From positions 7,751 to 71,750 of the forward strand of contig MNTT01000015.1 of assembly GCA_001917135.1 (NCBI GenBank): a DNA stretch of 64,000 nt, read 5' to 3'. A program made the position numbers and the translations under genes. Shown piece by piece: positions 21,081-27,380 of this stretch. The notes under the pieces were generated by a model. The model saw only the letters and a list, made by a program, of their open reading frames with translations. It was not told the DNA's origin and did not search any database. This stretch comes from Acetobacter sp. 46_36. GTDB lineage: Bacteria > Pseudomonadota > Alphaproteobacteria > RF32 > CAG-239. Numbering within the stretch: position 1 is the first letter of the stretch; every line of letters begins with the position of its first letter.

Positions 21081-22886
21081 ATGAAACCGCAAAACAACAG
21101 AATGCAACAGCCCGTATCCGCAAATTCGTTATTTTCTTTCTCTCCCGGACGGTATGTCCCCGCCATAACCGCTTTCGGTCTGTTATGCCTGTGTTTTTCG
21201 CCGCTTTTAGTAAACTTTATATGGGGAAATCACGACTGGCTGCCGCTTATACACGGCACCCCCCTGTTGTCCGGGCTGATTGAAGGGCGCTTTTCGCAAT
21301 ACATTCTTCTAAACCTGCTTCTGGACGGAAAAATTCTTCCCGTCCTGAACATCCTGCTGGGATTCATTTTTTACACGGCGGCATTGTTCCTGCTGTACCG
21401 ACGCTTCTTCGCCTTTTCTGTACGGCCGGCCATTGCCGCGCTGTTCCTGTCTGCCGCCGCGGGGCTGCCCTTCGCCGCAGAACTGCTGTATTTTCATTTC
21501 ATAACTTTCAGCCTGTTGTCCTGGCCGTTAATAATAGCCTTATCCCTGCTGTGCTGCCAAAAAGCGTCCAGCTCTCATCCTGTCATTTTCACGCTCTGCG
21601 GCACACTCCTGCTATTATTCGCGCTGGGAGGATATCCTGCTTCAGTCAACCTGTTTGTTATCTCCGCAGCCTGTTTTACCATACTTAGCCTGACGGCACA
21701 GCCGGCCAGCGGACGCACCATAATACGGCAGACTTTGCCGTTCGCCGTCTGTCTGCTGCTTTCGATGGCCGGACTAAAACTGGCATTTTCCTTTTTACAG
21801 GAACATCATTATATGATGCAATTGTATAACAGCCAGGCATCCACCGTACCTGAATTAACCGTTAAACTGCCAAAAATATTAAAAAGCGCCTTTGAAGATT
21901 TTTTTCAGCCGCGGCCATTTCTTTCTCCGTTTTTTAAAATGCTGATTTCATCAATTACTCTAACAGCAAGCGCAACCTTCTGTTTTTTTGCCTTTGCAAA
22001 ATCAGCGCCTTCCGCCGATGCACCTGATTACTCCCTGCTTTGCATATGGAAAAAGGTTCTTGCCCTCTTATTAATTGCCTCCCTTCCGCTATGTCTGAAA
22101 TTTTCCGCCTGGCTTGCTAAATCTGCTCCGGATGCTCCTTTTGCCATGGAAGACCCGGCTGCCTATATGGCACGGACAGATTTTTACGGCTATCCGGTTC
22201 TCACCCTTTTCTGCCTTTTCTATCTGCACCGCTTCGGCTCGCAAGTGCTCAAAAATTTTGCCTATTTATCCGCCGTTTTGTTGCTTATCATCAGTATTAA
22301 CCTGAACCTCAATTTTGCCAAAACCCATTTCTTCGGCTTTTCCGCCGAAAACAAACTTTTGGAGCGTCTGACTGCCCGTATCCAAAGCCATCAGGATTTT
22401 TCCCGCACAAGCCAGTACACCGTCATTCAGGCCGGAGAAATCCCCCTGCGTTCCCGTTACTATCTGCCGTCTGCAAACGAAAAATACGGCTACTATATGC
22501 TGCAGGCGCCATATACCCGCTATTGGATTGCCTTTGAATATTATAATTTCTACGCTCCGTACGACTATGTCCGCGAAGGCACCGCCATCCGTCCCGAAGA
22601 AATAACGCCGCAAATGGCTGATTTTCTCACCAAACGTGTCAAAACATGGCCTTCTGCCGATTCGGTATATGTCGATAAAAACTACGCTGTCATTGCCCTC
22701 ACCCAACGCGGCAAAGAATTGCTTACCCGTCAGTTTGAACTTCTTTCCCGCCAATTGCCTGTCTCCGCATCCCCTGACGCCAATAGAAAATTCTCCTCGC
22801 AAAGTTCCGAACCGCAGATACCGTCACAGACGCCGCGCCACAATCCAGAAGCCCCTCGCCAAACTGTTAATGGAAATATGCCATGA
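21081..22886 (+). CDS. Polytopic membrane protein, GT-C glycosyltransferase-like architecture, paralog A of 3
   Basis: 601 aa with about 11-13 TM and a C-terminal soluble domain. Shares NFIWGNHDW, SGLIEGRFSQYI, ILPVLN, LGGYPASVN, AGEIPLRSRYY and WPSADSVYV blocks with the ORFs at 22883 and 25626. Its stop overlaps the start of paralog B (ATGA). Confidence 0.8.
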   Translation: MKPQNNRMQQPVSANSLFSFSPGRYVPAITAFGLLCLCFSPLLVNFIWGNHDWLPLIHGTPLLSGLIEGRFSQYILLNLLLDGKILPVLNILLGFIFYTAALFLLYRRFFAFSVRPAIAALFLSAAAGLPFAAELLYFHFITFSLLSWPLIIALSLLCCQKASSSHPVIFTLCGTLLLLFALGGYPASVNLFVISAACFTILSLTAQPASGRTIIRQTLPFAVCLLLSMAGLKLAFSFLQEHHYMMQLYNSQASTVPELTVKLPKILKSAFEDFFQPRPFLSPFFKMLISSITLTASATFCFFAFAKSAPSADAPDYSLLCIWKKVLALLLIASLPLCLKFSAWLAKSAPDAPFAMEDPAAYMARTDFYGYPVLTLFCLFYLHRFGSQVLKNFAYLSAVLLLIISINLNLNFAKTHFFGFSAENKLLERLTARIQSHQDFSRTSQYTVIQAGEIPLRSRYYLPSANEKYGYYMLQAPYTRYWIAFEYYNFYAPYDYVREGTAIRPEEITPQMADFLTKRVKTWPSADSVYVDKNYAVIALTQRGKELLTRQFELLSRQLPVSASPDANRKFSSQSSEPQIPSQTPRHNPEAPRQTVNGNMP

Positions 22887-25625: not shown

Positions 25626-27380
25626 ATGGATAACGCCGCGCAGAAATCATACCTTTTTTTGCCATCCGGCTTTTACGGACGCATCTGGCTAAAGCTCTGG
25701 ATTGCAACGTTACTTGTATTTTTGCCTTTTTTGTTCAATTTTCTCTGGGGTAATCACGACTGGGAATGGATACGCAAAGGTACGCCGTTGTTTAGCGGCG
25801 TATTTGAAGGGAGGTTTTCACAATTTATTCTTCAAAACTTCCTCTTTGAAGGGCGAATTCTTCCTGTCTTCAGCATAGCAGCAGCCTTTGCTTTCTATTC
25901 CGGCGCGGCAGTGCTGTTGTTTCGGCTTTGGAACTTGCCGCCCCAAAAGTGCATATATCTTCTGCCGGGGCTGTGCTTGGCATCGTCTCCGTACGCCATA
26001 TCCTGGCTCTATTTCGCCTTTATCACCTTAAGTTCGCTATCCTGGGTCCTCGTCATCGCCGCTGCGTTTTACAGCCTTGAAAATCTGCCCCGGACACATC
26101 ATCCAAAACTCTCTTTTCTTGCCGCTGTTCTGTTGTTCGCTCTGGCTCTTGGCGGCTACCCTCCCGTCATCAACCTGATGGGCGTTGTCTTTTTCTCTCT
26201 GATTTTGCAATCCCTCTGTCTGCAAAGGCTTTCTGTCCCGACTCTTTTCCGTCATTTTATTCCGCACTGCATTGCCTTGTTTTTCGGTATCGCCATTTTT
26301 CTCTTTGCTCAATATTTGTTGAAAAAATACCATTTACAACATGATACATACAACACCGCGGGTATCGGTTTCGCCGAGTTTCCGGACAAACTGCTGCTCT
26401 GCCTGCAGACTGCCGTCGGACAGTTCTTCAAAAGCGGCGGTTTTATTACCACATCTTACAAATACATAGGCCTCTGCCTGTTTCTCCTTGCCATCTTTCG
26501 CCTCTGGCACCAACTCCCAAAACGCCCAGCAAACATCGCCCTGTTTTTTCTCTCTGTCGCCGGAATGCTTTTCGCCACCGTTGCCACACTGCTCGTTGCC
26601 CGGGACATTAACCAGGTGCTGTACCAGCCGCGTATCGACTTTTTCGGCCTCCCATTTATATATGCTTTCTCATCAGCAGTCTTGTTGGCATCGGACGACA
26701 GACTTATTCGCAACATAACCGCTTTTGCCCTGTCTGCCTTGATTGCCGGAAACATTAACACAACCGCAGCCGCCGCCAAAATATGGTCGCAGGGATTTAA
26801 AGCCGAAATGTCCTTCGCTGAACGCATCCTGACCCGGCTGGAAGATACCTCCAGCTTTTCCCCATATCGTAAATACGCATTTGTACAAGGCGGAACGCTG
26901 GATTTCCGCAGCCGTTTTCTTATTCCCGGCGACAGTATTACAGCCGCAGACGGCTACACCGTAACCGCCCCCTACATACCATGGCATTTGCCGTCCAAAG
27001 CCTACCTTTTTTATTATCCGCATAATTTTGTAGCCGCCGATTTTGACGTATACTGGAGCTATGTCGACCCGAATCAAATATCCCTTACCCCCGGATTAAT
27101 CTCTTACCTGCAAGATAAAGCAGCCCCCTGGCCGGATGCCGCCGCCGTCTACACATCTCCCCGGACTATTGTCCTGACCGTCAGCCAAGACGGCGAAAAA
27201 CGCGCCCGCCTCTGGCTGCAAAAAGAGCTGTCGGCTGCCCCCGCCGCATCGTCTCAATCCCCGGCACCAGCTTTATCGACGCCCTCGGCACCTGCCTCAG
27301 CAGCATCTCCCCGGTTTCCGGTATCCGCGCCATCCCGGCATCCTGCCTCCGTTCCCAGCTTGAACTTCCGTTTCCCCTAA
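25626..27380 (+). CDS. Polytopic membrane protein, GT-C-like, paralog C of 3, with Pro/Ala/Ser-rich C-terminal tail
   Basis: 584 aa. NFLWGNHDW, SGVFEGRFSQFI, ILPVFS, LGGYPPVIN and WPDAAAVYT blocks. Starts 3 bp after the GT2 stop. C-terminal SAAPAASSQSPAPALSTPSAPASAASP low-complexity tail. Confidence 0.8.
   Translation: MDNAAQKSYLFLPSGFYGRIWLKLWIATLLVFLPFLFNFLWGNHDWEWIRKGTPLFSGVFEGRFSQFILQNFLFEGRILPVFSIAAAFAFYSGAAVLLFRLWNLPPQKCIYLLPGLCLASSPYAISWLYFAFITLSSLSWVLVIAAAFYSLENLPRTHHPKLSFLAAVLLFALALGGYPPVINLMGVVFFSLILQSLCLQRLSVPTLFRHFIPHCIALFFGIAIFLFAQYLLKKYHLQHDTYNTAGIGFAEFPDKLLLCLQTAVGQFFKSGGFITTSYKYIGLCLFLLAIFRLWHQLPKRPANIALFFLSVAGMLFATVATLLVARDINQVLYQPRIDFFGLPFIYAFSSAVLLASDDRLIRNITAFALSALIAGNINTTAAAAKIWSQGFKAEMSFAERILTRLEDTSSFSPYRKYAFVQGGTLDFRSRFLIPGDSITAADGYTVTAPYIPWHLPSKAYLFYYPHNFVAADFDVYWSYVDPNQISLTPGLISYLQDKAAPWPDAAAVYTSPRTIVLTVSQDGEKRARLWLQKELSAAPAASSQSPAPALSTPSAPASAASPRFPVSAPSRHPASVPSLNFRFP

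Follow-up and report, generated by a model that had tools for sequence, protein, structure and literature searches.

The 64,000-nucleotide stretch analysed here (the window; positions 7,751 to 71,750 of contig MNTT01000015.1 of Acetobacter sp. 46_36, assembly GCA_001917135.1) contains an operon in which three related polytopic membrane proteins, here called A, B, and C, are encoded together with a family 2 glycosyltransferase (GT2) located between B and C. In its biochemical logic the locus is quite likely a multi-component transmembrane glycosylation module of the Gtr type, in which a GtrB-like synthase would make a lipid-linked sugar and several membrane-embedded transferases of the GT-C type would use it. 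The operon is most likely a divergent, uncharacterised branch of the GtrB/GtrC system and not a new enzyme class. That the acceptor is a surface polysaccharide or lipopolysaccharide (LPS) has an even chance at best.

The three co-oriented open reading frames (ORFs) had been taken for paralogs in an earlier examination of the letters without database searches (the sequence-only reading), and both their coordinates (Table 1) and their full-length alignment agree with this. Any two of the proteins are 29-31 % identical over their whole length, and every motif block listed in the sequence-only reading proved to be invariant in the alignment, with NFxWGNHD, SGxxEGRF, ILP, LGGYP, R-x-DF-xG, Q-x-G...R, and WP...VY common to all three. 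As judged by sequence comparison, the similarity is far above chance; a search with B among 5.8 billion proteins returned orthologs of C with E values of 8e-64 to 9e-62.

GtrII family membership and predicted active site

The Pfam family PF14264 (Glucos_trans_II) was built around GtrII, a glucosyltransferase that converts serotypes. Its gathering cut-off of 30 bits was exceeded by A (35.9 bits), by B (41.3 bits), and by a representative of D, a paralog encoded elsewhere in related genomes (38.7 bits); GtrII of phage SfII itself scored 106.6 bits. Most orthologs carry the PF14264 tag, and most of those that have been named are labelled "glucosyltransferase domain-containing protein" by NCBI. 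The scores of A and B and the naming by NCBI mean that the family is not an unnamed one, contrary to the earlier suggestion that it does not correspond to a named glycosyltransferase family and may be undescribed. C was placed in PF14264 because it can be aligned with A and B over its full length and because its orthologs in three related loci (L003, L004, and L087) are tagged as members. In a MAFFT alignment, SfII GtrII appears to be collinear with the family from end to end, from the membrane domain up to a C-terminal W-P-x-x-x-S motif, with Y177, Y237, F331, Y409, and W485-P486 (numbering of B) in common.

Hidden Markov model searches against the GT39, GT83, and YfhO families had been proposed with the sequence-only reading. 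None of the three proteins gave a Pfam match at E ≤ 1 to the ArnT/PMT_2-type families (PF02366, PF13231, and similar; GT83, GT39) or a match to the YfhO family (PF09586), and A and B matched PF14264 instead. A sequence search of the PDB with the family profiles A1 and A2 likewise returned no GT-C match, so the likeness to GT83 and GT39 is one of fold only.

When 1.84 billion cluster representatives were searched with the profile, only 764 members of the subfamily were found at E ≤ 1e-3. Among its distant members, taxon labels are almost lacking apart from one "Pseudomonadota" and one "Elusimicrobiota" metagenome-assembled genome (MAG). Many of the distant members (720-760 aa; P0129, P0136, P0141, P0147, and P0166) bear an N-terminal extension of ~200 aa that comprises a soluble domain (~150 aa) along with a signal or anchor segment and one further transmembrane (TM) helix. 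No Pfam match was obtained for these extensions.

In the AlphaFold model of B, ~11 TM helices are followed by a soluble C-terminal domain of ~120-150 aa. The helix number thus falls within the 11-13 that had been counted from the translations, while the soluble domain is smaller than the ~200 aa assigned to it. In fold comparisons the polytopic fold of the family matched that of solved GT-C enzymes, and its structural neighbours include AftA, AftB, AftD, PimE, and ALG3/9/12. A transporter fold was considered as well and was rejected, as Foldseek matches to MFS, NHE, and similar transporters reached TM-scores of 0.10-0.17 at a probability of at most 0.35; the earlier proposal of a GT-C-like fold is upheld by this comparison. 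A search of viral folds (BFVD) gave weak and uninformative matches only.

TM1 and TM2 of the model of B span residues 14-36 and 79-100, respectively. The intervening stretch, which is the predicted first extracytoplasmic loop, contains short helices that bear the WGNHD (40-44) and EGR (60-62) motifs, as had been expected. The N-terminus of B is rich in Lys and Arg, which, in combination with 11 TM helices, suggests a topology in which loop 1 and the C-terminal domain would face the periplasm.

Residue conservation was assessed in 162 family members from 87 loci. G41, H43, D44, E60, R62, Y237, N238, R328, F331, K377, G382, E386, Y409, Q413, G415, R420, and P486 are each kept in at least 157 of the 162. 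Over all five orthologous groups into which the family falls (A to E, see below), at least 160 members retain G41, H43, D44, E60, R62, R328, and E386, and D44 is present in 161. The loop-1 motif reads W-G-N-H-D in A, B, and C and F-G-D-H-D, with a true DxD, in D and E. A hallmark of GT-C enzymes is a conserved acidic residue or a modified DxD motif in the first extracytoplasmic loop (PMC8035078), and the N/D-H-D at residues 42-44 of the present family directly follows TM1. H43 and D44 of loop 1, together with E60 and R62, are predicted to form the active site. R328, in the loop preceding TM10, is a likely ligand of the phosphate, and the periplasmic C-terminal domain (Y409, Q413, G415, R420, and W485-P486) probably contributes to the binding of the acceptor. 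Conservation of the seven residues in all five groups suggests that all the paralogs are probably active. A role of some of them as pseudoenzymes or regulatory subunits was rejected, the same invariant residues being present in each group.

Donor synthase, conservation in relatives, and a prophage-associated paralog

The best solved relative of GT2 is GtrB of Synechocystis (PDB 5EKP; E 2.6e-57, 198 bits, residues 6-310), with ArnC (E 3.9e-35, 125 bits) behind it. Against GtrB of Shigella phage SfII, the full-length identity of GT2 is 38 %. Its scores against the NCBIfam models for PgfS (241 bits) and ArnC (140 bits) are both below cut-off. The DADLQD motif is present, and two C-terminal TM helices were predicted. 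With these full-length matches, the assignment of the gene between B and C to the GtrB type by the sequence-only reading holds.

A second full-length GtrB-type synthase, GT2b, is encoded in the window, where it overlaps by 11 nt the ampG-like gene to which the earlier reading had coupled it (Table 1). In a relative, GT2b is found at the same position, upstream of MurJ. It is possible that GT2b supplies a second lipid-linked donor; its tie to the operon is a putative one. That the overlapping permease of the major facilitator superfamily (MFS) acts as the flippase for a lipid-linked sugar is a speculation.

The operon was recovered from 33 species-level genomes, all of uncultured alphaproteobacteria, which according to the isolate names of the MAGs come from the guts of humans, mice, ruminants, and deer. 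Gene order was the same in all 33: BOF - DUF192 - A - B - GT2 - C - RecJ - DUF502 - MetK. The closest relative is a human-gut MAG named "uncultured Rickettsiales bacterium UMGS1453", in which B and GT2 are 97 %, C is 93 %, and A is 84-85 % identical to the proteins of the window. Across the relatives, identity is graded from GT2 (73-97 %) via B (55-97 %) and C (41-93 %) to A (37 to about 84 %).

Clustering of the family members yielded exactly five orthologous groups, A to E (n = 38 for group A). A, B, and C form the operon; D and E are solo genes located elsewhere. The surroundings of D are constant: an SQS_PSY-family gene (~281 aa) and a gene for a conserved protein of ~300 aa without a Pfam match lie immediately upstream and an M16 peptidase gene lies downstream (L083, L085, and 30 other D loci). 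An origin of the operon by recent tandem duplication was rejected, since orthologs of A, of B, and of C can be told apart throughout the clade; the triplication must therefore be ancient. The "tandem triplication" of the sequence-only reading is thus better described as a set of old paralogs in the same order in all 33 genomes, belonging to a family of five. Its proposal of three alternative transferases for diversified modification is likewise not what was found: A-B-GT2-C is a fixed core-genome set, and the copy-number variation that was to be looked for in relatives did not occur in any of the 33. The retention of each ancient copy argues for fixed and non-redundant roles as opposed to a diversifying locus.

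E adjoins phage structural genes in 11-12 of its 16 loci. Its neighbours encode a small (Sf6_terminase) and a large (Terminase_3) terminase subunit, a PF12236 portal protein, a major head protein, and phrog_376 tail proteins; the flank at the far side of E differs between loci. The podovirus-like prophage genes are found around position 8000 in L042, L049, L050, L060, L063, L068-L070, L077, and L086. Such a location at the edge of a prophage is classic for serotype-converting GtrC and other lysogenic-conversion genes. No gtrA or gtrB was found within 8 kb of E, which would thus depend on the synthase of the host. E has the appearance of a GtrC that is carried by a prophage but unaccompanied by gtrA and gtrB. 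Among the contextual evidence, its position gives the strongest hint at a role of the family in modifying a surface glycan recognised by phages.

Proposed mechanism and alternative explanations

In the Gtr-type module proposed here, GT2 would charge undecaprenyl phosphate (Und-P) with a hexose, after which a flippase encoded elsewhere would turn the resulting lipid-linked monosaccharide to the periplasmic face of the membrane. A, B, and C, acting independently of each other, would each pass the sugar to an acceptor position of their own on a surface glycan, and D and E would do likewise from their own loci, probably using the same donor pool. The acceptor would most likely be part of the LPS (O-antigen or core) or else a different polysaccharide of the envelope. 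It is known that one GT-A may feed several GT-Cs (PMC8035078).

The closest parallel is the GtrA-GtrB-GtrC system of Shigella and Salmonella phages. PF14264 is common to A, B, and D and to GtrII of phage SfII, and the proteins correspond in length and in having a TM domain followed by a periplasmic C-terminal domain that ends in a W-P motif. A GtrB homolog is encoded next to them, and one paralog, E, is found at the edge of prophages. The differences are that, in the window, one GtrB is combined with three GT-Cs in a single operon and that gtrA is missing. Similar logic is seen in Gram-positive bacteria, in CsbB/YfhO/GtcA, in CsdAB/CD/EF with CflA of L. lactis, and in Listeria GttA, which feeds two GT-Cs: a GtrB-type GT-A makes the C55-P-sugar and several GT-Cs act on different polymers (PMC8035078). 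The GT-Cs of these systems belong to the Pfam families YfhO and PMT_2, however, and they modify teichoic acids or rhamnan in monoderms, whereas the present host is an alphaproteobacterium that, given the autotransporter encoded in the window, is diderm.

Several observations weigh against the proposed module. SfII GtrII is only ~16 % identical to the window subfamily, a remote similarity, and its first loop (WGWLYD...DGEF) is shorter and has neither the WGNHD nor the EGR motif; the proteins of the window therefore constitute a divergent subfamily of PF14264. When the family profile was compared by hhalign with the single GtrII sequence, the probability was as low as 24 % (residues 45-281; E 8e-4). 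The copy of C in the window had no Pfam match even at E ≤ 10, the representative of E had none either, and the WGNHD subfamily has no characterised member and no solved structure. Phage gtr cassettes are mobile and vary between strains, whereas the locus in the window is a chromosomal, strictly conserved core-genome operon. No family member was present in the viral contigs of IMG/VR or, by tblastn, in GenBank phages, so that it is the genomic context that argues for phage carriage of E. Nothing encoded in the window indicates the nature of the sugar or of the acceptor. Lastly, no GtrA-like ORF was found among the small polytopic ORFs of the window, as already noted in the sequence-only reading; in 1.3 Mb of related loci, a jackhmmer search with SfII GtrA returned no GtrA and no ORF of 100-170 aa with at least four TM segments was seen. 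The genes of shared flippases, GtcA and CflA among them, lie apart from those of the GT-A/GT-C pairs. With the precedent of L. lactis CflA, a single flippase common to several such pairs (PMC8035078), the lack of a linked GtrA does not refute the Gtr-type model.

The strict conservation that sets the locus apart from phage cassettes would also fit an assembly line, in which A, B, and C (with D) act one after the other on one periplasmic glycan, making different linkages from a single lipid-linked monosaccharide, the product being a core envelope polymer of the clade. EmbA/B/C and AftA-D work sequentially in this way with decaprenyl-phosphate-arabinose, as do ALG3/9/12 with dolichol-phosphate-mannose. 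Every genome retains all the paralogs in a fixed order with their catalytic residues, AftA, AftB, AftD, PimE, and ALG3/9/12 are structural neighbours, and the gradient of conservation from GT2 via B and C to A would suit steps leading from the inner to the outer part of a polymer. Matches at the level of the fold cannot discriminate between these modes of action, however, and the mycobacterial EmbC/A/B and Aft enzymes differ in being ~1,000 aa or longer, in having other extracytoplasmic domains and an arabinofuranose donor from a different pathway, and in showing no sequence similarity. GtrII, as the nearest named family, attaches glucoses singly as side branches, the operon contains no genes for polymer export or priming, and the prophage-linked E is better explained by decoration, all of which makes an assembly line rather unlikely. 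A broader version, also unlikely and put forward with more reserve, is a periplasmic pathway specific to the clade, made up of the five paralogs and both GtrB-type synthases in the absence of GtrA. Such a pathway would build a major envelope glycan from lipid-linked monosaccharides and not just decorate one, its flippase would be of a kind other than GtrA (the MFS protein translationally coupled to GT2b being an example), and prophage-borne E would remodel this glycan via the donor pool of the host.

The GtrB/GtrC-like reading would include as a special case the modification of LPS core or lipid A after the manner of the Rgt enzymes or ArnT, in which Kdo, core, or lipid A would receive from the paralogs a sugar that might carry a charge, and the outer membrane would be constitutively tuned in its charge and stability. 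In Rhizobium leguminosarum, also an alphaproteobacterium, several GT-C paralogs (RgtA/B/C/D) are combined with a single synthase (RgtE). The Rgt system transfers galacturonic acid (GalA) from a polyprenyl-phosphate donor in a constitutive LPS modification that is carried out by ArnT-like (GT83) enzymes. These belong to GT83 and not to PF14264, and no sequence relationship between them and A, B, or C was detected in the Pfam scan, in which the ArnT/PMT_2 families gave no match. In addition, GT2 is nearer to GtrB than to ArnC (198 versus 125 bits), ugd is in the window but 9 kb away and not syntenic with the operon, and neither an epimerase for UDP-glucuronic acid nor a lipid A phosphatase is encoded adjacent to it; this special case thus appears doubtful. 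Very improbable is O-glycosylation of Ser/Thr-rich periplasmic or surface proteins, either of the PMT type of actinobacteria and yeast or resembling the Pgf system of Streptococcus mutans. The latter consists of one GtrB-like protein, PgfS, and two GT-C membrane proteins, a composition akin to that of the operon, but the PgfS score of GT2 is far below cut-off and the Ser/Pro-rich tails of A and C are not conserved.

GtrB-type synthases, GT-Cs of PF14264, the use of several GT-Cs per synthase, and shared flippases are already known, and with a biochemical logic so well established the gain is incremental. Modestly new are the motif-defined, uncharacterised subfamily with its five paralogs conserved in an uncultured gut clade, the fixation of three of these in one operon with a synthase, and the prophage-associated copy without gtrAB. 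Almost nothing is known of the cell surface of these gut alphaproteobacteria. That five periplasmic glycosyltransferases are conserved together points to a surface glycan, the decoration of which would be central to the biology of the clade, and prophage-linked E suggests that the glycan has a role in the interplay of phage and host. The invariant WGNHD, EGR, and R-x-x-F residues are direct targets for mutagenesis of the subfamily.

Layout of the operon and its surroundings

Table 1 Features of the operon and of its surroundings in the window
Feature	Position	Strand	Remarks
Paralog A	21081-22886	+	ORF of 601 aa; Pfam PF14264; GT-C of the GtrII family
Paralog B	22883-24445	+	520 aa; GT-C of the GtrII family; best conserved among A, B, and C
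GT2	24678-25622	+	314 aa; GtrB-type polyprenyl-phosphate glycosyltransferase; PF00535
Paralog C	25626-27380	+	584 aa; same GT-C family as A and B
WGNHD codons of A (W48-D52)	21222-21236	+	Putative catalytic His-Asp, periplasmic loop 1; invariant in A, B, and C, 161/162 family members
WGNHD codons of B (W40-D44)	23000-23014	+	Followed by the E60-G-R62 codons at 23060-23068
WGNHD codons of C	25746-25760	+	
DADLQD codons of GT2 (residues 102-107)	24981-24998	+	
Degenerate 18-nt tandem repeat, 5.8 copies, consensus CGTTCGTTCCGATAATAC	24484-24587	+	Found with TRF; within the B-GT2 spacer
GT2b, second GtrB-type synthase	11620-12591	-	Full-length; 38 % identical to GT2 of the operon; same C-terminal TM helices
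MFS/AmpG-like permease (MFS_1 + Acatn)	10266-11630	-	11-nt overlap with GT2b
ugd (UDP-glucose/GDP-mannose dehydrogenase family)	36597-37901		
Autotransporter	40557-43994		1,144 aa
Glyco_trans_1_2 protein	46314-47333		
Protein with Lnb_N, DUF7840, and DUF7843	3451-5382	-	642 aa; envelope-related

Of the other genes in Table 1, ugd was found elsewhere in the window as had been stated before; like the autotransporter gene and the Glyco_trans_1_2 gene, it is not syntenic with the operon. Within the operon, A and B have 4 nt (ATGA) in common and 3 nt separate the stop codon of GT2 from the start of C, both exactly as read earlier from the ORF list, and GT2 is translationally coupled to C. There are two candidate start codons for A, ATG 21081 and ATG 21102, the second of which is used in the closest relative. 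Scans for promoters and terminators across the operon performed no better than on shuffled sequence.

The tail of A is rich in Pro and Ser and that of C in Ala, Ser, and Pro. The low-complexity tails noted in the sequence-only reading are thus present, but they are specific to the lineage and without a counterpart in relatives, in which the median lengths of A and C are 535 and 534 aa. B and GT2 are separated by a spacer of 232 bp that contains the 18-nt repeat array. In the closest relative (L006) this array is shorter, and distant relatives, with spacers of just 80-110 bp, lack it; it may represent an element ahead of GT2-C whose copy number varies.

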